Shown piece after piece: positions 1 through 26,630 of a stretch of DNA of 64,000 bases. Under the pieces are notes generated by a model, which ran no database searches, was not told the origin of the DNA, and worked only from the letters and a program-made list of their open reading frames with translations. The stretch comes from Psammoneis japonica (taxonomy: Eukaryota). Numbering within the stretch: the first letter of the stretch is position 1; every line of letters starts with the position of its first letter. The translations under genes were made by a program, and so were the position numbers. The stretch is from NCBI GenBank assembly GCA_008632985.1, contig QPGO01000106.1:1-64000 (forward strand), given 5' to 3'.

Positions 1-3000
1 TTGCGTTCACTCTCAAGTTCGAATGACCGATTAGCGTCCATGTGTGACTGCAATCGCCAAACGTTGTTACTAGCAATTGTTCTTCCGGATCTGGAAGGAA
101 GATTTTACCCTGTACCAATTGCTGGAATGTAACAGAGTTCGGACCAGCCAAAACCTGCGTTCCTCCGACCAACACAGAAGCCATGAGGGCCGCACCGCTG
201 GATGAATAGTCCAGCTCGAGTACGTTCAAGTCGAAGCTAAATGCGGCTGGCGACTGAACGCCCCGGAGTTTAACATTCTTGCCATCTGCGAGCCTTCTGC
301 CAGATGAAACCGTATCAACGAGATCTCCAATCTGTTTCACATTGGAGAAAGAGCTGTACGCGCTGCCAGAGACGCATTCAATCACTTCATTTCCAACACT
401 TCCTGATAGACTCGTACAGTCCAGCTCTCCGCTGTCACTCGCCGGGAGTTCAAGTATGCCACTTGACACATCATAGGAAGCAAGTGGCCCGGGTAGCTCT
501 GGTGTGAAAACGAGGGGGTCAATCAGATCCGTCGTGAATGTCTTTTTGTAGGAGAAGAGGGTTATCTTCCCAAAGAATAAATCGATAATGATTCTGATAT
601 AAATGCTGAGAAAGACATTGATTCGCAGACCGAATTCAAACCATTTTAATGCGGTGATAAACCCGATGTAAGCAATTCGTAAGGGCGCACAAGGCCCCCA
701 GATTGCTGGGGATTTGGGTCGAACAAGTCAATGGTGGCAATAAACTTGATGCCGCCCGACACACCGATCTCAATGAAACCTGCGCTTACACTAACCATGA
801 CAGCCACAATGCCCGTAAGGGTAATCATCGGCTTGTCTACACCATCGAATACATCAATCAAACCAAAGCTATTGAGGGCCTTCTCAGGCTTGTCCTGCTC
901 AATGGCCTCGCGGATGCCTTTGGAATCCAGGGCAAAACCAACTTCGAGTGTTGCAACGAATTCAAACGCAATCCCAAGCCTTGCTGTGGGGGGAGTGTAC
1001 CTGGACAATCATACGAAAATAATTCTGAGGTATATCCAAACAAGGGATATCTTGTTGGGGGATGCATGGTCGTGGAAACTTACACAGTTGTCTGGAACTC
1101 GCACTCGAATGCAAAGTTTGCGTTGGGTGGCTCAAATGCAATCAATTTCTGACAGCAAAACAAACGCAACAACTTTGAGTGAGTTTCTCAAACACGCGAA
1201 TCTATGAGACACTCTTGTTCCCTGCATCAACTCACAATGTCTTGGCCTTGGAGCAGGCCGAGGGCATCAGTTGGTCTGGAGAGTGCGGGGAATTCAAGCC
1301 CCGACACCGAGTTGGCTTGGCATGAAAGCCTTTTTGATTGGCACACGAAGTCAGCTGTTGAACAGTCTTGAGCGAGGACACTTGTACAATTCTCATCGGC
1401 TTGACCCTCGAAAATTGGATCAGAAAGCGCTCCTGCACAGTTGAATCTGTCCAGGAGATCGCGTTTGTCTGCCAAGCGAAGTCCACCGCTGTCGCCAAAA
1501 GATTCGAATGACGAAATGACTGACTCGCAGATCTTGGCAATTTCACGAACAGTCTTTGCTCCCGAACGCTTTCCGATGAAAATTTTGGCAATGTCCAGTG
1601 CAGTGATGTCTCTCCCAGCAATATCTGAAATGCCCGGAATCCGTTTGCCGAGAGGCACAAGTGGCCCCACAACATTGTCCAACATGCCATCTGAACCGTC
1701 TGCTGCTTTCCCAAGGACAGACTTGACGAAATCCTTGAGCGCCTCTAAATTGAGTTCTACTTTGGTGAGCTGAGCAACTGTCTCAGAGCACTCGTTGTCA
1801 AGAAAATCGACAGCCACTCGATCTGCGTTGTTCAACGAGCCGGTCTCAATTCGGCACCGAACTTCAATCCCGAAATCTAGTGTCGGGATCCAGGATTTGA
1901 TTTCGTCAAGCCCCTCTCCTCCGATCGACAGTTTGACATCTGATTCAAGAGCTGCACCAGCAAGGGCTCCAACCTTGAACAAGTCACTCTTGTCACGTGT
2001 CCTTCGAAAGTCCGTTCGAGTCAGAGACCCACCCTCTCCCGTGGACATGTCCACGAAGACACCCGCACCAACCGTCAAATTCGCACGTTTCATTTCCGCC
2101 AACAAAAAGAACAATGAAGCAGTTGTGTCTTGGTCCTTGACTTTGAGTGTTGCATTGACAGCCAGCTCTGACTCATCCGGAACGGCAGAGAGAAAGAACC
2201 CTTCTTCGTCGTCGAAGCCAAGTGCCAGTTGAAAACGCCACGAGATTCCAAGAGAAGGCGATGTGTCACCAGTCTCTGACGACATTTCCAGTGGAAAGTC
2301 AATGCCATCACCCAGGCCAAAGTCAAGAGGAAACTCTTGCTCAAATTGCTGGCCAAGGGGCATCTGCCAGACAACAGACGTTGGGTCGCCAGTGGTGCAG
2401 CTCACGACGCCTTCCACACCACGAGCAAAACATTCGTCAGACACGGTGTTTTCAAATGGAAGGAGATCAGCCTCCTGCAGCACATCCTCAAGGAGGTCAC
2501 GAACGACATCAGCAACATTCTCTGCTGATTCAATCCTGTTCAAGGTTTCCCTGAGCTTCGGCACAACATCTCGGCGTGCTTGCGCCAAAATGTTGTTGTC
2601 TGCATTTGAACCGATGGTGCTTCCAAGTCCATTTCAAATGAAGGGGATTCAAAAATTGTCACCCCACCGTTTGTCCCAAAAATGGCATCTTTGACGGTTC
2701 TCAATGCATCGTCCAAGGCATCAACAAACTCATCTCGCAACTGAAGCAGGAGTGTCAACAGATCAGGAATCTCGTCAGGCCCACTAAAGTTGACTGTCGG
2801 GTCCAAGCTTGCAGGGTTGTCAATGAATTCATCCACGTTGTCAATGCCGAAGCTGATGTCTGCGCTAAAGTTAACAAGGGGCACTTCAAGATTAATGTCG
2901 GCACCAATGGATCCTGAGAATGATGCACCAAGTTGACTGACAAGAGCAACTGGATCAATGAGCTGGCACCTTCCATTGGCAAGTCCGACTTCCAGTTTTA

Positions 3001-6000
3001 GAGGATCTGCTCCATCCCCGATGAAAAATCCTGCATCCACCTTTGCGCTTGGAGGTCCTGTGGAGGGCTCGAAATCCAATGTTCCGTTCGCGACAAACGA
3101 CGCGGTGAAAATCGGCCCCCCAATGATGTGAGTCTCCACTTCGAGAGTGTCGGGGTTGCAACTCACTTTCACATCTAGTCAAAAGACCAGCTCGCCATCG
3201 ATTTTGATTGTCGCATCACCATTGGATGGCAAGAGCGTCTTGGCAAAGAACTGTGGAAAATTTGAATTCGCCGTAATTTTGGAAAGGTCGACATCCAGCG
3301 ACTCCACCTCTTTGAATGTCCATCCGAGCTCAATCTCAAGCGAAAGCTCCAAATTGGTTGCAGCCATTTTGACAAGTGGTGCTCTGCCAATGCCGTCGGC
3401 AAGCAACGTCTCCAGCTTTGCTTCAAATGATGACAATGAGTTCTTGATGCTGACTCTCGTCACGTCTTCCGCAAGGAGGTCGACGATTTCATCGTTCTCA
3501 AGGGCTTTGATTTCGTCTTCCCTGAGGACGTTGACAGCATCGATGAGGACTTGCAAAAAGCTTGCTGCATCGCAAACCCTGATTCCAACAACTTGACAGT
3601 TGAGAACGAGCAGCGGAGAACACACACAGAAGACAAATGAAATGTGAGTCTGAGTCTGTTCTTGTCCTCTGTGTGGAGGGCTCCTTCTTTTTCTCTGCTT
3701 GCGTGGAATCTGACACCGGACAAAATTGTTCCCCAGCAGACCTCCAGCACACGACTTCACCGCCTCCGGTGTGAGATCTCCGACAACAAATTCCACTGCT
3801 CTCGAAAAGCCTTCAAGAACATTGGCACAGGACAAGCCTGGAATGCCTTGAGGGAGACTGACATTGAAGAGAACCGGTGGAGCACTTAATTTGCTGAGAA
3901 AGTCGACTGTGAACGGCTCGAAAATGCCATCATGCGTCTGTTCTTCAAAGTCATCGAAAGGAGGCGCTAGTCTGACAGCCCCAGAAAAGCTGTCTGCAGC
4001 AAATGCAGATGAGGCACCAAGAAATCCATCAACACACCCTTCACTTTCTGGTTGAAAGATGGATGCCACTGCCATCAGCCAGTCACAGCAAAGCAGGCAC
4101 CCGCCGGAACCAAGTGAGACGCTCACGTCTCCCACCAGCGATGCACTCAAATCTGTTCCGACCTCAACAAGACCTGGTCCAACAGTTGCGACAAGATCCT
4201 CACGCCCTTCAATCTGACAATCCGCGTCAATCAACGACTTTCGGACTGTGATGTGGCACGGCCTTCGGGACAAATCCTGGTCTTGCAGGCCGCAAACATC
4301 AGCAATGTGCTCCATCCTTCAGTCTTGTGGGCAGTCAAGCACATCCTCAAGAGTTGCAACTTTGGTTTCAGGATCCACACAGTCTTTTTTTCGCACCCAG
4401 AGTCTAACATCATTGATGGATGGATCGAATCTGATGCTCACCAAAGACTTGCCGCACTTCTTGACTGTGGCAATGCCGTCAAAGACCCTCCCAAGCCCTT
4501 CCGTGACCAAGCCACCGGCTTCGAAATCCAGCGGAATGGTGTTTCTGCTTTCCATGATTGTGCATTGAAGTCTCAGCCTGACGGCCTCTGAAGTGCACTC
4601 GTCAAAGCCCATCCCAGAGCAGGCACATCCTAAAATGACAATGTCTTCACTCAAGTTCGGTGCCAAGATGACCGTGAAATCTGCCGTGTAATCTGCTCTT
4701 TTTACAGCCACTGTGATTGAGCTCACTTCTTTTGGAGCCACTCGTCGCACGTTTTGGAGGTCACCCACGCCACCGGACATGTCAAATCGAACATTGTACG
4801 ACGAGGCACCCCTTTCAAAGGCCAAACTGACTTCGAAACAGCTCACCTGCTTTCCTGTCATTTCTGGGGTGCAGGAGAAAGGAACATTCACACATTCGCA
4901 TCCAAGGCCCATCACAGTGTCTTCAACTGTGGTGAAAGAAAGAAGGGCAACAGGTTTTGAAGTTGTTGGGAATGGTTCTCGCAAAAGAAGTGGCGCCGCA
5001 CGCGCGTGTCTCCAGCGTCACTCACTGCGAGTCACAAGATCATGAAAGGAACAGAAACGAGGAACCAAAGCCGGCATGACAGGCTGATTCAATGGAAACT
5101 CAAACATCGACGTCGGACCTTGTAGCTCGTCCAAGTCTTTGTAAAGCCCAACAAGGTGAACGTCCTTTGGTCCTGCCAGCGACCGAAGCAATGAAGACGT
5201 GGCCATCATTTTCATTTACATTTGGAGGGTGAACATCAATGACAACGTCACAATCTTGGTCAAAGCAGCCGAAATGTTCCCCCGCATCGTCATCAAATTG
5301 GCAGAAACAAGAGCCGGGCAGCTGAGGGTTGCATTCTAGCGCACAAACCGCAACACTGCAGTCTGAAGCGTTGATTCCATCAAAGAGAATCTTTCTGAAT
5401 GCAAAACTGTTCTCTGGAGGGCTCATGGGCAGTTGAAAGGCACACACACCGTCTGTTTCTTTCGCCAGTTCCCGAACAGACACAGGATCGTCTGGATCAA
5501 CTGCCAATTTGGTTTCCACAAAGTGGAGCTCCAATGTCTTGCCAGGAGCAAAGGTCCTTCCGCTGCTTTCATTAAATGCAAGCAAAGAATTAAGGAACAG
5601 ACTTCGACTGGGGCGGAGGTCGAAATCCTCAACCTTTGAGAACCACGGGAAAAACTGATCAATGAGTGGGGAGCCTGTTCTGAGAGTTTCGCCAAACGAG
5701 ATGTTCGACAAAGGCAAACTAAGCTGCGTCGCTTCGTTCACCTGGGTCCGAGTGAAAGTGCTGTCCATTGTGCGAAGAAGTGAAAAGGCGTTCTCCGGGC
5801 AAAATGCCAAGAAGTCATCGATGTTCGTCAAGTCCGGAACGTCGAGTTCCGCAGTTGCCGAATGGATGTCGTCCTCAATGACACTGAACGCAGCAGTCTC
5901 GTCTGATCCAGTGAGCTCTGCACCCAGAAAGGGGTCGCCAATGGCACAAGTTCCCTCAACACTGTGCTCTCCAATGGCATTGAGGTGGAAGGATGTGCCT

Positions 6001-7206
6001 GTCTTGATGGGCCGTCCGATGACATCCTCGTCACAGTCATCGCCACCACACTCAGTGAGATTGAATTCAGCCGACGCAGTTGCATTGTCAGCCGTGCAAG
6101 CCAAGTTCAACATTCCCAAAAACAAATCCAGATCCGGCATTCCGCCAAGCTTCAGTGATGCTTCAATGGGGGCAAGCAGGACAAGGTCTGGAATGAAGAA
6201 CAAATCAGCGACGAGGCAAGCGCCAAAATTGAGGTTTGAAGACACAACTTTGATTGCGTCCATCTCAAGGACAATGCACTCCCCAACAGCATGGAAAAGC
6301 CTGGCACCATCCAGACTGGCAGTTCGATCAAAATCAATCGAAGAGCAAAAATTGACAATGGCACCGGCGCCGGGACCATTGGGTCACCGTCACGGGTCCT
6401 TTGGTCCCATCGCAGCCAACTGCCAATGGATGAGAGTCAACAACCCCATCTCTTGTCAGGCAATTGGCCAGTCGCTCTTCCAATGCCCTGCAGGTGATTT
6501 CAGCATCCCCTGTTTCCTGTGTTGTCTCCTGGACAAAATTCCTTAAATCAACCACAGCATCTGTGCTGCTGTTCTGTCCTCCAATTACGGCATTGATCGA
6601 TGATCCTACAAAGGGGATTTTCCGGTTCAGGATTTCATTGTCTCGAAAGACCTCCACCCTTTCGCAGAGCTGGTTGAAAACTGGGTCGAGTGCAATGAGA
6701 TCCACAACACAGGCGTCCGCCACAGCACTGGGTGAAGATGAAGGAGAAGATGACACACTCGGTGGTGGTGAAGGAGCGGGTGTGACAGTGGGTGCTGTTG
6801 AGGGGGCCGATGTGTCAGTGGGCGAAGTTGAAGGAGACTTTGACACACTCGGTGGAGGTGAAGGAGCCGGTGTCACGGTGGGTGCAGTTGAAGGAGCCGA
6901 TGTGTCAGTGGGCGAAGTTGAAGGAGCAGATGACGCACTGGGTGGAGGTGAAGGAGGTGATGTCACCACGGTGGGTGCACTGGTGGAGGCTGGTGCTCCT
7001 CCGTCGAGGAGGCGAGACCAGTGCTCAGCATCTTCCGTTTCCAACAAAGCCTTTTCGTTCTTGTCATCCTCTCTGGATTCTTCTTGCCCTGCTCTTCTGA
7101 AAAAGCGAGACAAGTGATCAGCAGCCGATGCGACGTGAACAAACGACGCCACCGCCACCACGACAAGGATGACACAGGAAAACGCACTGAACTGTGAGAG
7201 CCTCAT
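1..7206 (-). pseudogene. Disrupted gene for a giant secreted protein (>2000 aa; signal peptide, Pro/Ser/Thr repeats, acidic beta-rich body resembling RTX/hemolysin-associated giant proteins); continues off the window
   Basis: ATG 7206 with hydrophobic leader MRLSQFSAFSCVILVVVAVA. Consecutive minus-strand ORFs 6334-7206, 5100-6263, 4319-4984, 3179-4315, 2540-3172, 1227-2588 and 646-1008 are broken by frameshifts/stops. Introns 1149-1235 (GTGAGT..CAG), 1001-1083 (GTAAGT..CAG) and 3592-3702 (GCAAG..AAG). Family assignment is recalled from the GVSGGI..IDLFDP..GLVR motif, not searched. Confidence 0.7.
6739..6957 (-). repeat. 90-bp coding tandem repeat (~2.4 copies; PSTSPTDTSAPSTAPTVTPAPSPPPSVS)
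   Basis: TGAC(A/G)CACT..GGTGG recurs at 6751, 6841 and 6931. Confidence 0.9.
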
Positions 7207-7918
7207 GGTGTCACAGCCTGTCTGTCAGAGAGCGGTGTTGCAGAGAAGTTCGCAAGCAAGCAGCAACGATGAACGTTCAGAAATGCAAATGATCTGTGAT
7301 CTTCTGTTGACAGTTGATTGACGCTTTTGTGAAAGGATGAAAAACTGCGTGTGCGTGGACTCCACGCAAGATAAAATTTCAAACTTGGGATCCACATGTC
7401 ATTTGTTGAGGAAGATTCAAAGATGCTCAGGAAATCTTTCTTCAACAAACAAGACTTGCGAACAGCAATGATCTCCAATGCAATTTCAAAACTTGATCAA
7501 GCATGCCCGTCGGACTTCCAAATTCGGCCCGTCATGTGTGTGTGCAACGCGGCCATCAGTGGTTGGTGATTGCACGCAGTGGATGCCAAAAAGGGTGGTT
7601 GTTTCTAGGTCGACACCTTTGCCATGGAGAGGTGATGAGAGGTTGGATGCGGGTGTGTTGGCGAAAACCCATTTTGGTTTCCAAAGCAAAAACCCATTTT
7701 GGTTTCCAAACATGGCCAACCACTGCATTGTGACAGGCTGAACTTCCGTCCATGGGCATTGCCAAACCTTCGTGGAAAATTCACATTGCTCCCGTTGCCA
7801 GTCATGGGGTTGGTGGCTGTCATGGATGCACAGTGTGCATGTGAGTGAGCGTGGTTTGAGTGACTGGAAGTTGGGGATTTCAAGTGGGAATTGTTGCATC
7901 TGCATGAGTTGCCAATCT

Positions 7919-8178
7919 GGCCTGTCCCAGCTCCAGGTGCTCCGCGCGGGTTCGATTCCCATCATTTGGAAATTTGTGCATTTAGCGCAATTAACTTTTT
8001 CCAAATCCGTTTTTTGCCAAATCGAAGGGCAAGTGTGCACTTTGCATGCATTTTCGGGTGTACACTCACCTTTCGATTTTCGAAACGATCAAAATTGAAG
8101 GAGTTAATTGCGCTAAACTGCGCAGAAAATCGGCCTCTCGCGTGATGAAAAGCAGAGCACCTGGAGCTGGAACAGGCC
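7919..8178. mobile_element. 260-bp MITE with 24-bp TIRs and a 4-bp TSD (ATCT)
   Basis: TIR GGCCTGTCCCAGCTCCAGGTGCTC (7919-7942) vs GAGCACCTGGAGCTGGAACAGGCC (8155-8178), 1 mismatch. ATCT at 7915-7918 and 8179-8182. Inner inverted repeat TTTAGCGCAATTAACT/AGTTAATTGCGCTAAA. Absent from duplicate copy B (empty site ~9455). Confidence 0.9.
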
Positions 8179-8488
8179 ATCTGTCATTTTGCACGTCATC
8201 GGGAAGAATGTGGCACAGCATGAGATTTGCTTTTTTCTGTTTCAGAATGCCATCGGTCATGTCAGGCTTGCGCTCTCATGTTCAGAAGAAAGCAAAATGA
8301 GCCACACTCAACAGGTGCATGACATGTTGCGGATCCTCACAGCACAACAGCAAGCCTTGCAGCAAGTCGCTCCTCTCTCCAATCTCAACCCTCACATGGA
8401 AGACTGTCAGTGATGCCCTCATCCTGCATGTCAGGCAAAACTTGCAGGACACATTGCTCTGTGAGATGTGCAAGGAGGTCACCGTGTG

Positions 8489-8962
8489 TTGTCCACTCTC
8501 TCGAACTGCTCCCCGGCGCTGTTCTCCACAATCAAAACACAATTCTTCTCCTGCATCAATGTCTCGTTTGGCACAAAAGCACATTTTGCCATCTCCAAAC
8601 CATTGCTTTTTCCACACTGCACATTTGCATCTATTTTGGAATTCATCCATCGTGCCAACCCGGATTTGTCAGCGTCCATGCCATCATGGTGCACTGGTTC
8701 GCCCCGCTGCACTGCCACAGACATTTCAGCAACATGACGACCTCAACCGTTGGGATGCCGTTCAAAGCACTTGTTTTCATCAAGTTGCTCACCCTTGTGC
8801 TTGAACAGACAGGATCCAGATTCTGTGTTGCAAAGTGCAAAAACAGCCCACCATTCCCGCTCCGTCAATTTTAGATTCTTGAGTTGCAAATTCGGACTGG
8901 GGAAATGGATCTCGAATCTCATTAAATGACATGCAATGTGAGACAAGAGCAATGCCAACAAG
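8489..8962 (-). pseudogene. Hypermutated partial copy of the SET-domain gene
   Basis: KMCFCAKRDIDAGEELCFDCGEQ and SCLFKHKGEQLDENKCFERHPNG align to KMYFYAKRDIDAGEELCFDYGEQ and SYLFEYKGERLDENEYFQRYPDG; frameshifted. Confidence 0.92.
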
Positions 8963-9745
8963 CAAAAAACACAAGAAATGGAGGCCAAGATTTTTTTCAT
9001 TTCTCTCTGTGGCCATGACATGTGCAGAGTGGCTTCAGGGTGCAGTGTTGAGGTTTTAGATGCTGAATTTGGCATTCCATTGAACTGTGCCACCTTGTGA
9101 TGTGAGTGAATTGCGGGGCCATGAGAAAATTATCCAGTGTTCAGTGGATGCCAAAAAGGGTGGTTGTTTCCAAGTCAACACCTTTGCCATGGAGAGGTGC
9201 TGAGGTTGGATGCGGGTGTGTTGGCGAAAAAACCCATTTTGGTTTCCAAACACGGCCAACCGCTGCATTGCGACAGGTTGAATTTCCGTCCATGGGCATT
9301 ACCAAACCCGCGTGGAACATTCACGTCGCTCCCCGTTGCTCGTCATGGGGTTGGTGGCCGTCATGGATGCGCAGTCTGTATATAAGTAAGCGTGGTTTGA
9401 GTGACTGGAAGTTGGGGATTTCAAGTAGGAATTGTTGTATCTGTATTAGTCGTTATACTGTCATTTTGCGTGTTATCGGGAAGAATGCAGCACGGTATGA
9501 GATTCGCCTTTTCTGTTTCAGAATGCCGTCGGTTAGGCTTACGCTCTCATGTTCAGAAGAAAGCAAAAGCACCACTCGACACTCGACGTGTCGCGGATCC
9601 TTACAACACAACAGCAAGCCTTACGAGTCCTCTCTCCGCTCTCGACCCTCGCATGGAATACTATCAGTGATACTCTTGTCCTGTATGTCGGGTGAAACTT
9701 ACAGGACACACTGCTCTGTAAGATATGTGAGGAGGTTACCATGCG

Positions 9746-10447
9746 TTATTCACTCTCTCGAACCGCTCCCCAATACTGTTCTCCATAATCAAAACACAAT
9801 TCTTCTCCTGCATCAATATCTCGTTTGGCATAAAAGTACATTTTGCCGTCTCCAAACCGTTGTTTTTTCCACACTACATTTGCATCTAGTTTGGAATTCA
9901 TCCACCGTGCCAATCCCGATTTCCTAGCGTCCATGCCATCAATATACACTGGTTCGCCCCACGGTACTGCTGCCGGTATTTCAGCAACATAACGACCTTG
10001 ACCGTCGGGATAACGTTGAAAGTACTCGTTTTCATCAAGTCGTTCGCCCTTGTACTCGAACAGATAGGATCCAGAGTCAATGTTGCAAAGCGCGAACAGT
10101 CCCATGCCCGCTCCGTCAATTATAGATTCTTGAATTGCAAATTCGGATTCGGGCAATGGATCTCGATTCTCATTAAAAGACATGCTATGTAAAACAAGAG
10201 CAGTGCCAACAAGAGTGGTAGAACTCAAAATGAAAAGTGGATCAAACATGTCGGTGGCAATTCCAACCGTCAGCGCGGCAACCGCCATTCCTCCACCCGC
10301 AATCAATCCGGTTTGTTCCAAACGACGAGATGCAGATACTTCGAGTTGAAGAGGCTTCTTCTTACTGCCATCGTGTAGATGCTGTGGTGGTGGTAGGGCC
10401 AACAGACAAAGGATGCCGCTAGTAGCAGCAGCACAGAACGGCGCCAT
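9746..10447 (-). CDS. SET-domain protein lysine methyltransferase-like, with N-terminal hydrophobic segments
   Basis: GAGMGLFA, ARWMNS and ELCFDYG SET motifs; ATG at 10447. Confidence 0.88.
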   Translation of the reverse strand: MAPFCAAATSGILCLLALPPPQHLHDGSKKKPLQLEVSASRRLEQTGLIAGGGMAVAALTVGIATDMFDPLFILSSTTLVGTALVLHSMSFNENRDPLPESEFAIQESIIDGAGMGLFALCNIDSGSYLFEYKGERLDENEYFQRYPDGQGRYVAEIPAAVPWGEPVYIDGMDARKSGLARWMNSKLDANVVWKKQRFGDGKMYFYAKRDIDAGEELCFDYGEQYWGAVRESE

Positions 10448-11528
10448 TGTCGACTTCACCGTATCATACAGTACCGCCGCCCGGTATGATGTGTGACTAA
10501 CGCGTATTCCACTTTTCGAAATTATGCTTACCTACGTGTACGAAGACACCATTTTCTCAACATTTAAAGAAAAAAGCTTTTTTCCGATTTCAATTGACCT
10601 GGTAATTCAATAATGAGTAAGAAAAATGCAAAATAGCAAGAAAGTGTCGTTAGTTGCTTGCGTTCGAGGTGAATGTCATCATTTTTCGCGGCAGCAAGTT
10701 GTGAGCTCCACAAATCATACACTTACTGTTGTCTACCATCAAATAACGCACACCATAATCCATATTATCAATGAAATGGACCATCCGTTGCTTGGCTTGA
10801 TGCAAAAGACAGTGTATGACACGCAACAGCCCCATTTCGATTGATGCAGAAATGTCGGCCGCAGACAAATGGTTCAAATGTCGACATGAAACTAAGAGCC
10901 GGTGTTCCTCGTCAGGGCTTTTAACATGGTCGAAATGCTCCCTATATAAGTGTATGAAACGAGCGTATCAAATAAAAAGAACGAGTCAGTGACACGAAAG
11001 CGCAATACGATTGTATCGCGACAGCACACGAAAAAGAGCAGCGGATGGTGATGCAATTACAAAATCCATTTTTGACCTTTCGATTGAGCAATTACCTTCA
11101 AACAAGCGATGAAAATAGTTTCTATATGATGGTAGAAACTATTCTAAAGCACTGATGTTGTTGAAAGGGTTTGGCAATAGCATGAAATGCCGTTCCGATT
11201 CTCATGGTGAGTGGCGTTCGGAGGGTGTGTGCGCATACGTGACTGAATGAGTCCCGCCTAACTTCATGCAGCCGCCGCGCGCTCGCCTCAGTCCTTATGA
11301 TACAGTAATTTTAATTTTAAGATATATTACTGTATTTATAAAATCATTCACTTCCAACGGACACCTAGTTTCCTAACAAGACTGGATCAAATGGTCGCGG
11401 TTAGCATAGAATAGAGTCAGTCGTGTATGCGTACTGCGGTTTTGCATTACACGGTATTTTGGGTTAGGTTTTCGTTTTTGGAGATGCCGCTGCTGCGAGT
11501 TACCTAATATATCGTCATCTCTCTCGTT

Positions 11529-11552
11529 CACAACAACAACAACAACAACAAC
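11529..11552 (+). repeat. (CAA)n microsatellite directly before the ATG
   Basis: caacaacaac... run ending at ACATG. Confidence 0.9.
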
Positions 11553-13982
11553 ATGCTTTTGAGAAAAAAGGAATTGTCTTGTACTGTGATTTTATGCTTT
11601 TATGCGCTTGTCAGAAAAACGAGGGCTCAGCTCTTTCAAAGGCTAAGACCAAAACCACTCTCGAAACGTTTGCTACCTAATTTGATCAAATCTCTTTTGG
11701 ACAATGGCGAAACGTGTCCATCCTATCAGGATATGGCTTATATCATTAATGGCTTACAGTTCCTTTCCGAAGGCTACGAGGGTTTTTTCGAATCGCGATT
11801 GGCAGCCGACGGAGAATCGGTAGACGAATTGGGCACCTGCAGCACGTCCCAAGTCCGGTACGAGGCCATTGTCTCCCATATGGAAGCCATGCCGCAACTG
11901 GTGGAAGATGGATTGGTAGTACGCGACAATGCCCTTGGCTTGTTGCGCCTAAACGACGTTCTCTGGCCCCATTGTCAAGGTCAGGAATACTGTGGAATTA
12001 CTGTGGTGAGTGGCTCTTTTTGTTTGTTTTGTTTTTGCTCTGACTTATGTTCAAACACGTTGGCCTCACGTTCAGATACTGTCTTGTACGCTTGTTTTGC
12101 AGGGAGCCCGAAAGGATGTGCATGAAAGAGTGCGACCCCTTGTTGAGGAAGTATTCGGCGACGGATCGGTCGGAGGAGATTTGGACCAAACCAGCACTAA
12201 GTTCTGGAATCGGGCCACGCTGGTGGAGTCGGCGAAAGATTTTTTAAGTGATAAAAACAGAATTTCGATTGTCACCGATGCAAAGGTTTGGGTTGCAATG
12301 CAGTTGCATCAGATTGCCTTGGGAATTTCCTTGAGTGAAGACGAAGCAAGGAACTTTGTCGATATACAGGGTCGATCACTCACGCTGGCACTTTTGCCAG
12401 GAAAGTTGGTCAAGTTTTTTCGTATTTTTCTTGGCGTAGACGATGTGATTGCCGGTAGAGAGGCCTTTGTTGCCAGGTATGAGGATACTTTGCGGCAAGG
12501 CATATCCAGCGGCCGCATTCAGACTCTTAAAGATCAAGACGACAATGTCGAACTGGCGGCCTGGTCATTTTTTGATGCGTTTCAGTTTGCAGGAGGTTTG
12601 TCTGTTCCAAGCGTCATTCAAGGTGGCTTGGGCGCATACTTTACCGGGCTTGCCGGCAATGACTTCAATATCAACGACAGCTCGCAGGCTTCTCTGTTGG
12701 CCCTGGAGAGCATTCGCATGTACCCACCTGTACTCGGTTTTCCGTACATTGAACTCAGCACAGGTCATCGTTTTGCACCTCTGGTGGGGTACAGTGGAAT
12801 GGACAAGTCCGTTTTCGGTGAGGACGCAAATGAATTTCGTATTCGCGGAGACTTGAACTACTACAAGAAGAATCTTATCAATTGGGCTGACCGGGCACTA
12901 CCGGTCGACGGAGTTCCGACCAGGTAAGGGAGGCAAACTGTCGTTCGAAGCGTGGTACACATTACACTCACTGAAACGCTTCTGTGCCATTTAACTCAAT
13001 TTGCACACATTTCCCTTGCAACGTACAATAAAGCAACTTCGTCTGCCCGGCAAAATCGCTAAGCTACAATATGATACTCGCTTTTTGGGAAGCCATGTCT
13101 GTCACAGAGTGGTGTCCAGACCCCACCGACAAGGAAGGCATCACTGTAGGTAATGGACCTAACTTTTGGTCGGATTTTAAGTTAATCCGAAGCGGTGACC
13201 CCAGCAAGAACGGACAATTGAGGGCAGTCAACAGTGGCTCTCACCTGGAGAAATGCCCCAAAGTTTCTGATTCCAACAAGTGTGGGCCCGAAGGTCCACG
13301 TTGTTCGCGTGAGCATTACGAACTCAAAACTGTCAACGTTGACGACCTTGTAGATGCGAACAAGAAGTATCACTCCGACCTTGGCCCGCGTGTTGCGACG
13401 TCGAGCAGTGGCCTTCCATCTCAACTCTTGGGCGTCTTTTGGCTTTCCTTCAACGGTGGCGATTCGGCTCTCGTGTCCTTTGCAAAAAGCAATGATGGAG
13501 GTGGTTTGAGCTCTGGTAGTCTACAAGACGCCCAGGGATTGTACCCCATATCATGCAGTGGCGACCGCACGTGGTCATTTTCGGGCCAAGGAATTTCTTT
13601 TAATTTTTGCCGTGGGGCTGATTTGGTTTACAATTTTCGATTCGATTCCGCAAAGGACCCGAAGGTTGCTGGAATTGAACCTCATGTACGTGCTCTCGAC
13701 CTTGTTGTTCCCACCAACCCAGCGTTAATATTAGACATGACTCTCTTGAGTGAAGAGGAAGCTTCCCAAGCTGGGTACGAGGGAAGTGTCGTATGGGAGC
13801 GCAACAGCCGTGTTCTTGGCTTTGACTTGGACTATCTTGCAGTGCAAGTGGTAGATGGCGACTCCAACATACTTCCCGCGTTTTCCAAGTTCTTGGAGTT
13901 CGCCAATGAATCCGGTGGGAGCCCTGGGTTTATCCACTACTTTGAAACAAAGAAAGAGAATGTCAGCCCGCTTGGCGTCTAA
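11553..13982 (+). CDS. CYP74-like cytochrome P450 (allene oxide synthase/hydroperoxide lyase-like) fused to an unknown C-terminal domain, ~740 aa
   Basis: Exons 11553-12005, 12103-12923 and 13034-13982 join in frame (GTGAG..CAG; GTAAG..AAG). ExxR motif ESIRMYPPV, I-helix FAGGLS, and heme-Cys region INW..SNFVCPAKSLS resembling the CYP74 NKQCxGK motif. Confidence 0.7.
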
Positions 13983-14189
13983 ACATGGGACAGAAACACG
14001 TCTTCTTTTCCACTTAATTACATGTAATCCACGAAACTAATGCATGACATAACGAACATGATAATCCCTTATTCTGAAGGCAGTTCTGTTTCTTGGCTGG
14101 AGGGACTACAGACTGCCGGTATAACGTTAGCAACGTTTCTTTCTTGCAACAATCAGCTGTAGTTGTACCGGCATCTTGAACCGTGCTCA

Positions 14190-16170
14190 ATGCGATTAAG
14201 GTTTGTGAGTTCTCGCAGTCTTCCACAGGTCAAGAGTGTCATTGGCGTCTTCAACTTTGCTCATTCGGAATGTCAACTGGCTGGCGCGTCGAGAGGGTGG
14301 AGGGAGAAAGAAGAGAGAAAGCGAAGAGTGCTTTTGTGCTGGCCGAGAGATCCTGTCTTTTCAAGCATCGCCAGGTGGGAACAAAAAACCATTGATGTCT
14401 GTCTTTCAAGTTTCCAGCAGAGAGCACAAAAATTGACAACAAAATTCAAGAACATGGGGATTGCCGGAAACCACTTTGAAGGGTCCATTGTCATTGCGCT
14501 CATCAACATCATCTGCAACAATCTTGAGCTCATCCTGCAGTGCTTTGCAGTTGGCACGTTCCTCACCCGATTTCCAAAAATTGGCAAATTCACTCATGAG
14601 CAATGGTGTGTGAACAGAGGTCAAGGCCATGAGAACAGAAATGCCAACACAAAGGATTGCTTGTCGGCACGAGTGGATTTGGGGTGGTGTCAAATTGCAC
14701 CATGATGTGGAGTTTGAATGTGTTTTGTGACAGAACCCACATGTTTGTTTCCCAATGTGACATGGTGGAAAAATGCTTGGCAACTGAGAGCATTGGGCAA
14801 ATCATCAGCATGCATGTGCTGTTTGAGTGGCGATGAAAACTGGGCCAATTCTCTGTCCTCGGTCATGCCACTGCCACCAAGAACCTTGTCGTGACTCCAG
14901 CCATCTTCAAATGAGTGAAGCTTTCCATTTTGAATCAACTCATTAACTTTGAGTCCCTTGCTCTTGACAAGTTCTGGCAATTTTTTCCATTTTGGTTCTT
15001 TTTGGCGCATGCTTGCCACCGCTGCTTTGAAAGAATCTCACACAAAGCTGGTGGTGGTGTGATGCACAATGCTGGCTCAATTGTTGATGAGCACCATGCA
15101 CATGACAAAGGGTTGCAGCACTCAATGAATGGCATGGTCCTCTTGCAGAGCACAGTGCTGGCTTGCAATGTTTGAGCCGAAACCCAAAAGTGATGTTGAA
15201 ACAAATGATCTGCCGCTGTCATGAGACAAAAGAGTGAGGATCTCCCCATGCAAACTTGGCATGATGTGTTCCCACTGGCTTCCATCACTGGGAGTGACCA
15301 AACTGTCAGATGTGCCTGTCACGAGAACCTTTCCTTTTGGTCCTCATTGAAGTGGGCACATGCTCCGCACCTGCCAAAGCCTTTTTGTGCCTCAAAATCC
15401 TTCACAAAGAGCGTGTCCACTTCAAAGACCTTTCTTTTCTGATTTGCTCCAGCGGTGGAAAAATGAACAATGGCCAACAGAAAAAGATCCACTTTTTTGA
15501 CAAGACAGTGGAGAGCTTCCACACCTCTGCTCTCAAGTGACACAGAAAGCATGTGTGTTGTTCAGAAAAAAATGTTGAACCCTCACACTGCCGCTGATGC
15601 TGAAAAAAAGAGGGTTGAGAAAAAACACATTGTGATGCACAGCCATGGTGCAAGTTGCCAAGAGCTGGAGTTTGTGTGACATCTTGGGAGGCACCAGCTT
15701 GAAATGAGTTTTTTGCACCCCACTTCAAACAAGCCCACTTTTCTGGGCCTGAGCACTTTGACCCATGATGCCGGGTTGCCCTGGCCCTCAACAGGTTCAT
15801 GAAGAAGCAAAGTTGCCACTTCTGGCAGAGCTGGTGTGCTGAGCACCAGCACAATGTTCTCAGGTACAGTGCACAGAATGTGCCCCAGCTCTGCTGGGTG
15901 GGATGCCTCATGCATTGTGGCACTGTGTGGTGCTGACATCGCGTGGGCCTCACAACATCAAGCACACGTGTTTCTGCACACAACTTTGGCTGCATTTTTT
16001 GCACTGTTTTACCGCACAGCCCAGTTGTCATGCTGTCCACTTGACAACTTTTAATTTTTCCACAAAGCAGCTCTCAAATGTGCCTGTGGCATGATGCTCC
16101 AGCCCCAGTTGTTGCTCCACAGAGCATTGGCCTGCCCACGCAAACTCTGCCCGCAGCTCTCACTCTGGTT
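14190..16170. other. TpA- and CpG-depleted degenerate island, origin unrecognised
   Basis: Only a handful of TA sites in ~2 kb; overlapping Cys/His-rich, near Tyr-free ORFs in all frames. Confidence 0.8.
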
Positions 16171-16416
16171 GATAAGTGAAATACAACTTTTGATTATGAA
16201 AATTGATGGGCATTTCCTATTACAGTATTATTTTTTCCCGCCAAGCAGTTTTGGATCTTGCGTGATGCGGCATAACTCGCGACCAACCTGAGCTGTTCTC
16301 GTCGTCGCGCCACATTCCTCATTCATTCAACTCACGTGTGCTGCATCTGTCTCATTAAAATATAAGTTTACACCTTTATTGGCATTCACTTGATCTGACT
16401 TGCAACAAACATATTC

Positions 16417-17734
16417 ATGATTTTACTCGAAACATTCCAACGACTCCGCGACATTGCTCTCGACGAGAATGCCACGGCAAACGAGCTGTTCTTCTTGGCG
16501 TTGGCCTTTGCCGTGGTTTGGGCCGTCTTTTTTGCAATATCGGGTGCCCTCATTCGTCCCCTCATTTACAACAAACCCTGGCTCATTCAGGCGGGACGAC
16601 GTGATTATCATCGTAATGGTAAGGAATTGTACGAAAAAGTCGGTGTGCTGCTGACGGAGGACGAGTATGTTGTCAAATTCATGTCGCTGTGGCCGTGGAA
16701 TGTCAATGTATGCATTCAACACGCCATGGGTGGACTGCTCTGTGTGCCGTCTATCATGGGTTGGTTTACACCCGAACTCTCGGCGAGTTTGGCCTGTCTG
16801 GGCATTATTAGTGAGATGGGATGGGAAATTCAAGATTTGCTCACGTGGGTCATCAAGCGATACACGCACCCCAATGGCTATTTTGAAGTACCAATGGCAG
16901 TGAGTAGATGATCTGTTTTTACGTTCAATATATGATTGGCGCTGTTGAATTCTAATCCCATGCTCTTGTCTCTTGCTCGTTTATATATAGTTTATTATTG
17001 TCTTGGGGATTCATCATTCTCTCACATGCTCGCTGGGCATTCCCATTGTATTAAACTTTCGTGCCTTGAAATTGGTACATTGGATGTGTCTTGATCTACA
17101 ATTTGCCGGCGCGTCCACCATTGTCATTACCGAATACACAAAGACACTCCAAGTGACGGTACCCAACGAGTTGCGTCAATTCCAAGCGTGGACGCTTTTT
17201 GGTTTAGTCGTGGCGTGTTGGACACGGGGTATTCATTGGTTGTATCTTTGTTACAAAATCATTGTTGCCATCCGTCAAGCCAATTCGCCACTGGCACTAA
17301 CGTTGTTGGCAAGCTTGATTGCGGTCATTTTTACGCTCTTTAATTGGGTCTTTGTCATTCAACCCTACTTTCGACGCTTTCAAAAATTCCAACAAGCATC
17401 GGCCGAGTACACGGCCCTGCCTGCCACGGCGGACAAGCAACAACGACGCTCTTCCATTATGGAATTGGAACAAGCTGCGGCATCCGTGGCACAAACGGCT
17501 CTTGTTCTTCAGGACGAAATGCTTTCGGCCGCGTTGCAATTCAACTCATACAACAATAACAAGGCGACAAGGCGAAGCACCATGCCGCCATCCATGTTTG
17601 GTTCGCAACCACAACAGTCAATCAGCAGACGACGACTTAGCTCCATTGCCATGCTGGGATCCTCTACTTCGATTGACGTGTCGAGTCTAATCTCGTCGTC
17701 AAAACTTGAAGACGAGCTCAAGAAGGACGATTAA
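16417..17734 (+). CDS. Multi-pass membrane protein, TLC-domain-like, ~408 aa
   Basis: Exons 16417-16899 and 16991-17734 (GTGAGT..TAG, phase 0); several TM helices; IHH motif. Confidence 0.7.
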
Positions 17735-21810: not shown

Positions 21811-22589
21811 GATTGCGTGATTTATGGCAGAGGAGAGAGCTTTTCAGAGAACAAGGTCTTTCTTTGAAATATGATTACTTCGGCAAAGATACGCTTTCAT
21901 CAGTTGGTTCCATGTTCCATCGGCCATCGGCAGCATCTTCCCGTCAAACCAAAACCTGATTCCTCCTCGTACGATACGTACGTAGATTTCTACGAAGAAA
22001 GTTCCGCGAAAAAATGAGGTTGAGCGTTCAGGATTGCGCATCCCCTGCGCGAAACGAACTCACTTGGCTGCCGTCGAAAAAATTGAAGTTTCGCGCGTCA
22101 GCGCGAAACTTTCGCGGCGGCGAAAGATTCCTGATGCCGCCAGCGGCGGCAATGTGCTTACATTCAAGTTTGGATCTAAGAAACTCGCGAGAGTTCGGCC
22201 TTGCATCCGAAGGAATCTTCAACTCGACCATGAACTTTTCACGAAAATGAGCGGTGAGCGGTGACGCCTCACCCACACTGACACCTTCATCGAGTTGACG
22301 ACTTTATCGAGCAGACGACATGTTCATCAATGCGAGATGGAGCTGCAGCATGTTGACCAACAACTGGGTTGTTCCAAGGTCAAACACATCACTGTGATGA
22401 TGAGTGCTGTGTCACGGGACTTTGAAGAGGTGGTGTCATCAAGTGTCATTGTGGCTGAAAGCAGCAACAAGCCTTCGGTTGCTGTTGCCTCAGTTTCAAG
22501 ACCCACTGGGAAGAAAAAGCAGCGGTTGTTGCAGAAGAAAAAGAAGAAACCAGCTTTTTCTTCTGAAGCATCCGATCCATTCACAGCAG

Positions 22590-22925
22590 GCCAGAACAGC
22601 ATGAGCTTCTGCATCCGTGGCAGGCCACGCTCACAGCAACGTGACAGGGCTGGTTGGAATGTGACCAGCAGGTGCAACCCATCAAAAAAGCTGCAGGCAG
22701 AGTTTGCCAAACTCGTGCACAACCTTTGTGCTTGCCACGAAGTGTCTCTGCCCTGCTTTTGCGCCAATGCAAGTCTGTTGGTGACTGCATCTTTTTTGTT
22801 TCCTCCACCAAAACGAGGCAGAGGAAACATTTTTAGAGTTGCAGACATTGACAACCTTTGCAAGTTTCTGCTTGATTCACTCAACAAGCTTGTGTGTGAT
22901 GATGATTGTAAAGTCGTGGGGTGCA
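22590..22925 (+). pseudogene. rusA: RusA-family Holliday junction resolvase remnant
   Basis: FCIRGRPRSQQR..CNPS..FLFPPPK..ADIDNLCKFLLDSLNKLVCDDDCKVV matches the RusA DxDNxxKxxxDxL..YxDDxQV pattern with Tyr->Cys. Confidence 0.75.
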
Positions 22926-23459
22926 CGAGAGTTTGTGTGGAATCAGCAAAAGAACAGCAATTGCTGTTGTGCACCTCTGCACAATGTGTCATTCAGTGCT
23001 TGTGCCACATTTCTTCCCTTTCTTTGTTCGATGAGGATTGTGGTGGAGAGGGGGGGGTGCACGACAGCTTGCGCAGCAGCAGAATTAAAACAACAGTGAC
23101 TGGAAGCACCACAATGAGAGGGGATGCACGAGAGTTGGTGTGCAAGCAGAACAATGACCATGAGGATTGTGGTGGTGAGGGACACACAAGAGTTCCTGCA
23201 ATTGAAAGAACAAAACATGCTGCGCCTGAAGCACATCCACCCAATGCACCATTCAATGCGCAACAGCTCACCATCATTCAGCACTTGTGCAGCATTTCTT
23301 CACTTGCACACTGGCGACACTGCGTTCTTCATTCTTGAGAAGAACAAAGTCAAGACACCTGTTCCTCCCTCTGCTGACATCTCCACAGGACTCCTCTTCC
23401 TGCCTTTGTGGCGGATGCACCCGTTGGCTTCACAACACTTGTTGCACCTGCCACCAACA

Positions 23460-24940
23460 CCAGTCATTGTCTTCCACAGGCTGGAGCTCGTCTTTTTGTT
23501 GAGTTCACCCATTTTGGTGAATGCTGCATGCTCCATTTCACATGCAACTGCAGCCAGGACACTGTCAAAATCTTCGATTGCCTCCCATTCAGATGCTTTG
23601 TCTTGAGCAACAGTCTTTGCTCATCAGCAAGAACAGACTCCACAAGCTCCACAGCCCCCCAACAGAAATGTGTGTCTTTCTGAGGCACCGAATCAGGCAT
23701 GGCATCATGCAGCTTGCGCCCAGCAAACAGCTTGTTTTTGTCGACCAATTGAACAATGAGCTCCTTTGTGGTGATCCCTTTGCTTGTGGCTGTCAAATCC
23801 AAATTTTGTCGCCATTGCATTGATGTCAATGCTTTCTTGTCGTGCTGCTGCTTGGCCTCACACAGTGTCTCATTGACAGATTCAATGAATCTCAGAAGTT
23901 CTTGCGGGATTCCGGGATTGCATCCCTTCTGTCGGGTGTTGTGTCGGCAGTGGCCGTGGTTTCAACAGTTTCAATCATGTCAGCTCTGGCATTGTGAGTG
24001 AATTCCTGTTTTGCAATGGGTTCTTCTGTGTTGTTGTTTGTTTCTGGCTCCTCCGCTGCCCGCCCACGGAACGCCGCCTTCAGCGCAGCAACAATGGATG
24101 ACAAGAACGTGGTTGTTGTCAACATCTTCAGTCCAGACACTTCAGATCCAATGAGATTTTGCTTCTGCTGCAGCTCCAAATTCAACTGCACAAGCTTTTG
24201 GATGACACGTGACTGCTTGTTGATTGCATCTGTCAAAGTTGTGGCCGCTGCATCTGGCACCCGACTGTTTTCCAATTCGTGGGCCTTGTCAATGATGCCC
24301 ACCAATGTGACCAATTTGCGGTGTGCCTCCCCTGGAGACATTGCCAACCTGGCTTTCTCAACAGAGGACACCAATTTGCACACCAATTGATTCCCAGGGC
24401 CAAACTCCTCGTGCACAACAGGGCACTTCATTGCAGTTGAAATAAAGAAACCAACACAAGGCACAGACATGACACAAGCCGGTCCATTTCTTCTGCTGTG
24501 ACATGGCTCACAAGAGCATCCAGACTTGCTGGGTGCACCATGTCTCATGGATGCTCAAATCCCACAAGCGCATTGGCCGGTGCCATTCCAGCCAAAGGAT
24601 TCATTCTGGTGTGTGGCTCACTGTTGTTGCCAGCTGAGAAGCCACCAGCAACTCCTCTGGTGTGACATCTGGATGAATTGAAAGCTCAGTGTTGGAGCCA
24701 ACGTGAATGCTCCAAGACAAATTGAACACAAGCATCTGGGCGTCTGAGTTTTTCTTTGTTGATTTTGCAAGTTGCGCAGCTGCAGCTGCATCAGAAATCT
24801 GCCAAAGATCCGGGAACACTGCCTTGTTTGCCAGCTTTGTTTTCTCATCCAAGCTGTCACACCGGCACAAGCCATCTTCCACAGCAAAGAACGCTCTGGT
24901 GACAGCAATGCTTGCCATGCTTGGTGTTTCACATCTCACT
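23460..24940 (-). mobile_element. Degenerate coding remnant, possibly tyrosine-recombinase (Crypton-like) element-derived
   Basis: SWSIHVGSNTELSIHPDV resembles the YR S-x-R-x-G..T..H motif after CGC->CAC decay; weak. Confidence 0.25.
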
Positions 24941-25938: not shown

Positions 25939-26630
25939 TTGTTGCTTTCCCACATCTTGCCGAGTGCTGTTTTGAAAACATCATCCACTGACATGCTCCA
26001 CAGGGGTCTGGCTCTCTGTGGCACCAACTCTTGTCACCAGAAACAGTCTGGAAAGGATCGTTGCGTCCGCCGATTCAAAAAGCTGCTTGGATCCACTCCC
26101 AGAGTTTTCAAGCATGTGTTTCACAATCCCCAAATGACTGAGATTGACAAAGCTCATGTCGCTCCTGATGACATCTGCTTGGATTGTTTCTTGATGGCGC
26201 TTCTTAACTTCTTGAAACTCTGCAAGACGGAGGAGGTCTGATCGGCCATTTTTGCTGTCTGTGAGAACCCGGCAGGCAAGTGGGTTTGGTTTTCCATTAA
26301 AAAGACACAAGCACTCAAGAAACAAAAAATTGTGTGGCCAGAAGAGGAGTCAGTTGAGCCGCTCCTGACGCACCTGTTCCTCATTTCGGTCGACGTTGTC
26401 CACTGCCTGGTGAACGGACCACAGCACCCATTCGTTGCATGGCAAAAACAAGAAACAACATTGCTCCCACAAAGCCAATCAAGCCGGCTTGACCTGCTGC
26501 ACAAACTTGCCCTCTCAATCCATGAGAACCGCCTTGTGTGGATGAGAGGGCCAGCCAACCGGCCAAGGCCTTGCTCCAAGCACGACATTTTGATGTTCCG
26601 TGAGAAGCTCAACATCATGTGGCCCAATGT
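25939..26630 (+). mobile_element. PIF/Harbinger-ISL2EU-like DDE transposase pseudogene
   Basis: RRFK..G, FLMAL.FLK, KIVWP, FLISVDVVHC..P.HP, SHK, LALSIHENRLVWMRGP, HDILMFR across broken frames. Confidence 0.7.

Follow-up and report, generated by a model that had tools for sequence, protein, structure and literature searches.

TpA-specific loss and a probably slower CpG decay in discrete domains of a Psammoneis japonica contig containing a tyrosine-poor pseudogene

How can a gene lose nearly all of its tyrosine codons and yet keep long open reading frames (ORFs) and most of its CpG dinucleotides? The question is raised by a pseudogene on the minus strand, at positions 1227-7206, of the first 64,000 nucleotides of contig QPGO01000106.1 (GenBank assembly GCA_008632985.1) of the diatom Psammoneis japonica; this whole 64,000-nucleotide stretch, with a GC content of ~0.48, is called the window throughout. 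An earlier inspection of the letters alone, referred to below as the sequence-only reading, had described a dead gene depleted of TpA (thymine followed by adenine, TA) in which CpG stays abundant, and proposed that TpA conversion is faster than, or independent of, the deamination of 5-methylcytosine (5mC), so that the CpG:TpA ratio could date the silencing of a region and would mark this one as a recent target. We find that TpA has been replaced by TpG or CpA in six discrete domains of the window, and that CpG depletion is nested within TpA depletion. A process that reads TpA and acts on DNA in place has very probably made these changes, and the explanation as a whole, a local TpA-specific hypermutation with a slower and separable CpG decay, TpA being lost first, is in our judgement likely.

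Only 29 TA dinucleotides remain in the 6071 bp of region 1230-7300 (observed-to-expected ratio, o/e, 0.08), where ~257 would be expected at the density of 42.3 per kb found outside the islands listed below (Poisson p = 2e-73). The same region retains 289 CG (o/e 0.74), and TG and CA are raised to o/e 1.41 and 1.38; the count of 7 CG and 0 TA that had been reported for 1801-1860 was reproduced. Over the window TA follows a two-state distribution of purged islands and normal DNA. Six sharp-edged islands sum to 36,343 of the 64,000 bases (57%), with TpA o/e of 0.016-0.081, CpG o/e of 0.30-0.70 and TG/CA o/e of 1.46-1.79, against 0.52-0.65, 0.89-1.04 and 1.13-1.34, respectively, in the DNA between them:

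1204-9300: island 1, 8.1 kb with sharp edges, containing the pseudogene; TA o/e 0.081, CpG o/e 0.70, TG/CA o/e 1.46
14198-16009: island 2; TA o/e 0.016, CpG o/e 0.30
21992-32978: island 3, with a RusA-like ORF inside; TA o/e 0.062, CpG o/e 0.49
37989-41367: island 4; TA o/e 0.079, CpG o/e 0.57
47695-56482: island 5; TA o/e 0.051, CpG o/e 0.35
60721-64000: island 6, continuing past the end of the window; TA o/e 0.051, CpG o/e 0.48

When the window was cut into 500-bp segments the two states did not overlap, TA o/e being at most 0.166 in all 67 island segments and at least 0.261 in all 50 normal ones, and the TpA change is thus confined to discrete genomic regions. The losses and gains balance: over all islands TAN and CGN trinucleotides are lost at 63.3 per kb and TGN and CAN are gained at 60.7 per kb. 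The sequence-only reading had stated that islands at 14-16 and 48-56 kb lack both TA and CG; both dinucleotides are indeed depleted there, as the ratios of islands 2 and 5 show, but 31 and 176 CG remain. The islands have, in addition, a slight deficit of ApT (o/e 0.70-0.88 vs 0.91-1.02).

The gene itself is defined by long open frames chained on the minus strand from 7224 down to 1227, and its predicted product has a signal-peptide-like N-terminus followed by a Ser/Pro/Thr-rich repeat. Tandem repeats at 6722-6979, with a period of ~90 bp and 72-85% identity, encode this Ser/Pro/Thr-rich N-terminal part. The gene and the features read in it are:

1227-7206, minus strand: pseudogene of a ~2000-residue secreted-protein family, an ORF chain from the ATG at 7204-7206 to the terminal TGA at 1227-1229
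5018-5020, minus strand: premature in-frame TGA inside homology-supported alignments
4319-4321, minus strand: premature in-frame TGA
3179-3181, minus strand: premature in-frame TGA in a column that reads R, K, T or Q in homologues
2634-2636, minus strand: premature in-frame TGA in an Arg-consensus column (R in 10 of 18 homologues), which fits a CGA to TGA change
5170-5178, minus strand: true frameshift, with ~6-8 codons lost relative to homologues and no indel there in read contigs
3592-3702, minus strand: retained 111-nt intron, where several homologue predictions stop and the alignment breaks at query residues 445-468
6381: one-base difference from a read contig that restores the reading frame; not a lesion
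2650: one-base difference from a read contig, in an A-run, that restores the reading frame; not a lesion

A HMMER search with the read-through of 2540-5017 gave 87 homologues, from metagenome or assembly contigs, 50 of them at E <= 1e-10 and the best at E = 7e-84 with 47% identity. They are collinear with the entire ORF chain (tblastn to P0122, P0124 and P0129): P0122 covers the N-terminal half, P0124 and P0126 the C-terminal half, and P0129, of 1996 residues, the full length. Pfam returned no family for the six ORF pieces of the pseudogene or for three of the four homologues tested, and for P0129 its matches were confined to two of the ricin-type lectin kind (E = 8e-6 and 3e-4), which fell short of the Pfam cut-offs. 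A word-index homology search with the 468-residue C-terminal piece, made among proteins of 257-819 residues only, found no homologue, and a protein atlas gave no usable match for the 1996-residue homologue.

The window shows three frame changes in the gene, two of which (2650 and 6381) are removed by the read contigs and are probably residual long-read assembly errors, or else alleles. What the window and the read contigs have in common are four premature TGA codons and one frameshift, and 9 of 11 conserved tyrosines have become cysteine or histidine, so the gene is a pseudogene and was rightly called dead. It is not a processed one, since the 111-nt intron is retained and the purge covers the flanks and neighbouring DNA as well. 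The donor of this intron reads GCAAG in place of the expected GTAAG type, which is itself a TpA to CpA change. By word depth the target is single-copy.

The direction of the change was read in three independent ways. A Tyr-consensus column was defined as one with Tyr in at least half of at least four homologues; the 11 such columns of the pseudogene read Cys (TGY) in 6, His (CAY) in 3, Tyr in 1 and Met in 1. Control columns were largely kept (Phe in 57 of 68, Cys in 20 of 22, Trp in 5 of 5), and the Tyr-rich columns of 45 homologues, each with at least 3 such columns, contain Cys twice and His never. Furthermore, the DNA of an intact homologue (L001:715-6702), 1996 codons long without a stop, contains 219 TA (o/e 0.53), has a CpG o/e of 0.80 and encodes 53 Tyr, and the homologues in general are mostly 1-3% Tyr. 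The pseudogene has 3 Tyr in the 1958 codons of its homology-supported frames (binomial p = 3e-19), with Cys raised to 2.96% from 1.6% in the intact homologue and His to 0.97% from 0.45%. The near absence of tyrosine that the sequence-only reading had remarked on is therefore real, and the intact relatives of the gene are neither Tyr-free nor TA-poor. Relatives of that kind had been named by the sequence-only reading as its own refutation, a test that it thus survives.

The third polarisation comes from a pair of paralogues lying next to the pseudogene, of which one copy is in island 1 and the other largely in normal DNA:

7577-8962, minus strand: hypermutated partial copy of a SET-domain gene with downstream DNA (self-BLAST), with a weak SET match at 8285-8668
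9142-10213: unmutated copy of the duplicated unit, taken as reference and overlapping the intact SET gene
9749-10531, minus strand: intact SET-domain gene (Pfam SET, E = 3e-17)
7910-8180: insert resembling a miniature inverted-repeat transposable element (MITE), with inverted ends, inside the mutated SET copy; keeps 5 TA

The duplicated unit consists of the 3' part of the SET gene and the DNA downstream of it, and its copies are 86% identical. Where the normal copy (TA o/e 0.67, ORF intact) has 47 TA, the island copy has TG at 19, CA at 18, TA at 3, CG at 1 and something else at 6, so that only 3 of 47 are kept; conversely, 69 of 77 TG and 74 of 85 CA of the normal copy are retained, and it is the island copy alone that has been mutated. 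Among 150 substitutions 69 have A or T in the normal copy and G or C in the island copy (33 A>G, 36 T>C), and 37 of these 69 are TA to TG or CA events. A to G change at ApA and CpA amounts to ~5%. The tyrosines of the intact SET copy, including that of ELCFDY, which we take to be conserved in SET domains, are Cys or His in the island copy (tblastn). A second and older pair (62362-63772 mutated, 46213-47347 normal) behaves in the same way, with 25 TA read as TG in 11, CA in 6, TA in 1 and other dinucleotides in 7. Homologue columns, intact homologue DNA and the paralogue pair in the window thus agree on the direction of the TA loss.

The two products are mutually exclusive, and TA to CG change is nearly absent, which means that conversion removes a site from attack and that recognition requires the intact TpA step. 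Furthermore, conversion of TA to TG or CA cannot create a stop codon, because the TAA that becomes TGA was a stop already; for this reason long frames persist on both strands of purged DNA, and every premature stop in the pseudogene is a TGA. At 9142-9300 the TpA-free state overlaps the normal copy of the duplication by ~150 bp, and this displacement of the island edge from the duplication junction fits a spreading domain better than the insertion of ready-mutated DNA.

Other features of the SET pair are worth recording. AT was changed to GT or AC at 15 of 74 sites, a weaker A:T to G:C drift beyond TpA. Error-prone repair by an enzyme resembling Pol-eta, whose hot spot is WA (W, A or T), was considered and rejected: AA became AG at only 4 of 78 sites, and AA/TT is not depleted in the islands. 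The MITE-like insert has a word depth of ~18,750, compared with ~58 for single-copy DNA, and at four of its TA sites (7984, 7993, 8105 and 8114) TG or CA predominates in the depth contributed by the other copies. This copy may be young and not yet purged; alternatively, the four sites distinguish subfamilies.

CpG has followed a different course. In the pseudogene 18 Arg-consensus columns read CGN in 13, TGT in 2, TGA in 1 and other codons in 2, so that 13 of the 16 CGN-type columns are still CGN, a loss of ~19%. In the same gene 9 of 10 Tyr TA sites were lost compared with 3 of 16 CGN Arg sites (Fisher p = 0.0008), and TpA loss is accordingly both faster than CpG decay and separable from it, as the sequence-only reading had proposed, the link of CpG loss to 5mC being a matter of inference. 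The description of CpG as abundant calls for a qualification, since CpG is mildly depleted, at o/e 0.73-0.74 compared with 0.99-1.13 in eight intact ORFs of the window. The SET pair shows a stronger effect: its 60 CG read CG in 22, CA in 17, TG in 15 and other dinucleotides in 6, and 32 of the 38 losses were to TG or CA. The C to T change there is CpG-specific, GC having become AC or GT at only 9 of 56 sites.

Across the six islands CpG o/e ranks with residual TpA o/e (Spearman 0.99, p = 0.0003, n = 6), and the 67 island segments of 500 bp show the same tendency (rho 0.46, p = 8e-5). Five TpA-purged segments have a CpG o/e of 0.86-1.14, and only one segment with normal TpA has a CpG o/e below 0.65 (0.55). 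CpG depletion thus lies within the bounds of TpA depletion: the loss of TpA is early and nearly complete, that of CpG slow and uneven. CpG loss is probably a separate, slower process, and, because it is CpG-specific, we lean towards 5mC deamination in a methylated, silenced domain as its cause.

Deep read contigs bear indirectly on this point. One of 9807 letters, with a word depth of ~58, covers 1-6835 of the window with 11 substitutions and 2 indels. Over 1-9101 the window and the read contigs differ in island 1 by 13 substitutions, 10 of which exchange CpG with TpG or CpA and 2 TpA with CpA, with 1 of another kind; the window has TG or CA at 8 of the 10 CpG-type sites, and the read contig has TA at both TpA-type sites (4999 and 5177). 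No substitution was found over ~5.9 kb of normal DNA together with island 2 (9397-16500). CpG sites therefore differ at 10 of ~336 in island 1 compared with 0 of 227 in the normal DNA covered (p = 0.007). These differences may be alleles, culture drift or miscalls at methylated sites, and each of the three makes the island CpGs special.

A precedent exists in the chlorarachniophyte Bigelowiella natans. In mutation-accumulation lines of B. natans 302 nuclear point mutations were recorded, 231 of them in two integrated, silent viral regions, and 230 of these 231 were A to G or T to C changes, all at TpA, with almost no G:C to A:T change alongside; the rate was ~6e-7 per site per generation, in some lines only (bioRxiv 10.64898/2026.01.13.699255). 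The same genome contains 124 clusters of windows poor in TpA and rich in CpA and TpG, and Mettrop et al., who propose deamination of adenine in DNA with an ADAT2-like candidate and did not identify the enzyme, read the process as resembling genome defence (bioRxiv 10.64898/2026.01.13.699255). From the figures given there we calculate 211/(6169 TpA x 3132 generations) = 1.1e-5 per TpA per generation. At this rate TpA would be purged in ~1e5-1e6 generations, far faster than ordinary CpG decay, which fits the order of events found here. A term search of the preprint gave no mention of CpG or diatoms, full-text literature searches found no diatom report of TpA to TpG/CpA hypermutation, and a term search of a DNA methyltransferase (DNMT) paper, PMC9998398, gave no passage on TpA, dinucleotides or deamination.

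The footprint in P. japonica resembles that in the giant-virus and virophage DNA of B. natans in that it consists of TpA to TpG/CpA transitions only, lies in discrete regions, and amounts to a long-term TpA depletion with gain of CpA and TpG; many of the affected B. natans ORFs cannot be annotated. It differs in several respects. The host is a diatom, of the Stramenopila, and not a member of the Rhizaria; depletion is near saturation, with o/e 0.016-0.08 compared with a Rho of 0.45 for the insert of nucleocytoplasmic large DNA virus (NCLDV) type; and 57% of the window is affected. In the window it is seen to have hit a pseudogene of host type, for a secreted protein, and a SET-gene fragment produced by duplication, and CpG decay, absent from the B. 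natans account, co-localises with the purge. Finally, a de novo rate was measured in B. natans, whereas here a long-term footprint is read from sequence.

Together, this evidence can be assembled as follows. A local hypermutation specific to TpA would have struck the tract at 1204-9300, including the single-copy pseudogene, and turned each TpA into TpG or CpA by an A:T to G:C transition on one strand or the other. A changed site would no longer be a target, and ~90% of the TpA sites of the tract would have been removed in this way; such a purge would spare open frames but ruin the protein, through Tyr to Cys or His replacement, and the intron donor, through loss of its GT. A second process in the same domains, slower and specific to CpG, would convert CpG to TpG or CpA, removing ~20-30% of CpG in this gene and 50-70% in other islands. 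CpG level and residual TpA would then rank the islands along one axis, most simply the time since a domain was marked. Of this, the data demonstrate the direction and dinucleotide specificity of the change, the mutual exclusivity of its products, the mass balance, the arrangement in domains and the death of the gene; the enzyme, a tie to silencing or methylation and the interpretation of the axis as time are deductions.

That this shared axis is time, and that 1230-7300 is a recent target, we consider to be evenly poised between right and wrong. The main objection to a simple clock is that the SET fragment and the gene, although parts of the same uninterrupted tract, have lost CpG to different extents, 38 of 60 sites in the former and 3 of 16 in the latter (p = 0.002). 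Moreover, TpA is near its floor in all islands, so that the CpG:TpA ratio adds little to CpG by itself. The ratio was consequently not established as a clock, and dating by it is plausible but unproven.

The unevenness just described is what would be expected if the TpA purge were saturated everywhere and CpG level reflected methylation density, the gene being a weakly methylated rather than a recent target, and the narrow low band of TpA o/e across all six islands agrees with this. We regard it as a possible but doubtful alternative: it does not predict that residual TpA should rank with CpG, as it does among islands and among island segments, the gene, with no more than five lesions, still has long frames and is clearly homologous to its relatives, and, judged by the comparison with read contigs, the CpG sites of island 1 do act like modified or rapidly mutating ones. 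A single burst similar to the repeat-induced point mutation (RIP) of fungi, removing both TpA and CpG, TpA more efficiently, would make the axis one of dose and the two signatures no longer independent. It would account for both depletions occurring in the same islands with the same products (TG/CA), for CpG depletion never appearing outside TpA-purged DNA, and for the near-perfect rank agreement across islands. Against it are the B. natans lines, in which TpA changed almost alone, the five TpA-purged segments with CpG near normal, and the CpG specificity of the C to T change, which is expected of 5mC and not of an enzyme that reads TpA; we think such a burst improbable.

A sequencing or assembly artefact, in which modified bases at TpA and CpG are miscalled in long reads, might be suspected from the two homopolymer-type indels at 2650 and 6381, which are in the window assembly and not in the read contigs, and from the CpG or TpA type of 12 of the 13 island 1 substitutions. 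Yet the TpA-free sequence is also found in read contigs that reach 315 kb, match the window at 99.8% identity and have a depth of ~58 in 31-letter words, values that noisy reads cannot give; the 35 transversions and several indels by which the SET copies also differ are real divergence. An artefact is in practice ruled out, and we give it very little weight. Least credible of all is a native or selected avoidance of TA and Tyr, or the reverse-transcribed copying of RNA that an ADAR-type enzyme had hyper-edited; in its favour, ADAR prefers a 5' U, as the preprint also states. This reading is refuted by the homologues, whose Tyr and TA are normal, by the retained intron, the purged untranscribed flanks and the purge of the unrelated neighbouring SET fragment, and by a change that hardly departs from TpA and yields TG and CA equally often.

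Other known systems share part of the signature. Fungal RIP shares with it dinucleotide-specific transitions, sharp-edged domains on the kb scale and the inactivation of genes to pseudogenes; its polarity is opposite, as RIP makes TpA from CpA and TpG and TpA is here destroyed, and it mutates both copies of a duplication, whereas here only one SET copy was hit and the main target is single-copy. RIP itself was therefore rejected: TpA is lost and not gained, most TG and CA sites of the normal copy are unchanged in its partner, and the normal SET copy is intact. The decay of CpG through 5mC in methylated repeats and pseudogenes has the same products (CpG to TpG or CpA), the same CpG specificity (32 of 38) and the same confinement to domains as the slower process described above, but covers only the lesser part of the signal and cannot touch TpA. 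Editing of the ADAR or APOBEC type in animals also leaves deamination-like transitions on selected sequences; the substrate here, however, behaves as double-stranded genomic DNA in place, with intron and flanks included, and the target is a strict palindromic dinucleotide of which both strands are hit equally.

Which TpA sites survive depends on their flanks. The contexts of the 140 TA left in islands differ from those of the 1171 TA in normal DNA: TTAA makes up 25% of island TA compared with 4% of normal TA, ATAT 0.7% compared with 8.1%, and ATAC/GTAT 1.4% compared with 16.1%. By trinucleotide, survival in islands is 0.024 for TAT, 0.054 for TAC, 0.127 for TAG and 0.199 for TAA, and CTAG, ATAG, TTAA and TTAG are the contexts of the four TA that the paired alignments show unchanged. 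Roughly, RTAY is the most sensitive context and YTAR is refractory (R, purine; Y, pyrimidine), a rule that assumes that the islands started with the context mix of normal DNA.

Our leading guess for the agent of the TpA change is an adenine deaminase acting on DNA. The natural substrate of ADAT2/TadA is A34 of tRNA, which always follows U33, so that a preference for T[A] would be inherent in an enzyme of that origin. Descent of the deaminase from ADAT2/TadA is nevertheless a tentative proposal, about which we are more doubtful than hopeful; an alternative would be oxidation of thymine at TpA by an enzyme of the TET/JBP type.

Several points weigh against the explanation given above or limit its reach. 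Residual TpA (o/e 0.016-0.08) lies far above what a constant purge at the B. natans rate would leave, so that the process must be episodic or some sites refractory, and what it has struck here are genes of host type and a fragment of a duplicate, whereas the B. natans preprint lays its stress on viral inserts. That preprint is not peer reviewed, and the likeness of diatom to chlorarachniophyte rests on the signature and not on the identity of an enzyme. A strand-specific rule derived from survival by context, in which the 3' neighbour of the mutated A sets the choice of strand with T[A]Y favoured, failed on 52 polarised events (log likelihood -44.5 compared with -36.0 for a coin-flip null; 2x2 Fisher p = 0.52), although the flank effect on survival itself stands. 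Silencing and 5mC in the islands are something that we infer; the CpG loss is too uneven within one tract for a uniform clock; the consensus columns are few (11 Tyr, 18 Arg); and the island borders were placed by eye using TA positions.

TpA-targeted local hypermutation, described once before, in the B. natans preprint, would on this evidence also work in diatoms, where it is new. With a saturated footprint in a diatom, the process would belong to two major algal lineages, the second of which has genetic tools, and a search for the enzyme through comparative genomics and knock-outs would then become feasible. Single loci with internal controls show that TpA purge and CpG decay are distinct, and that their order is TpA and then CpG. 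For annotation, purged pseudogenes keep long frames and are predicted as Tyr-poor, Cys/His-rich "proteins", and purged DNA raises TG/CA statistics and shifts local GC content. A bolder formulation is that diatoms possess a domain-directed editing of palindromic TpA in duplex DNA, a RIP of reversed polarity homologous to the Bigelowiella system and so old in the group of Stramenopila, Alveolata and Rhizaria (SAR), which strikes host genes, duplicate fragments and repeats, precedes CpG methylation decay, prefers flanks by the RTAY/YTAR rule and leaves Tyr-free ghost ORFs; we put this forward tentatively, as a proposal that falls a little short of an even call. If true, the RTAY/YTAR preference could serve as a fingerprint for finding the enzyme, and gene predictors would call the ghost ORFs as Tyr-free proteins.

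Some observations concern the rest of the window. The RusA-like ORF of island 3 is located as follows:

22265-23335, plus strand: ORF of 357 residues with a RusA Holliday-junction resolvase domain (Pfam E = 1.4e-6)

Its protein-atlas leads point to phage RusA clusters, with scores all <0.9, and it is a possible trace of foreign or viral DNA. Besides this ORF, the Pfam search of the island ORFs yielded decayed genes of host type, and families of reverse transcriptases, integrases or capsids were absent from its results. Part of island 4 is bracketed by an inverted repeat of 107 bp with 94% identity (39437-39543 and 41269-41375), and positions 39654-40191 contain a tandem repeat of ~180-bp period; together these repeats may mark the ends of a mobile element. 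In normal DNA a repeat at 10451-11550 has a word depth of 500-800, and its other copies read G at the TA sites 10725 and 10735, which suggests that they have been purged elsewhere in the genome.

Contigs of run X2 cover none of 1101-8800 or 14301-16500 and carry no weight on expression; they overlie genes flanking these intervals. At 12004-12102 a contig of this run skips 97 bases with GT..AG ends, which are probably an intron of a gene at ~11.5-12.9 kb, and this joint suggests that run X2 is transcript-derived. The proteins encoded in the window include a match to a diatom pyrenoid-shell Pfam family (E = 6e-82), and the best named matches of its Oxa1-like gene are from diatoms, at up to 62% identity.

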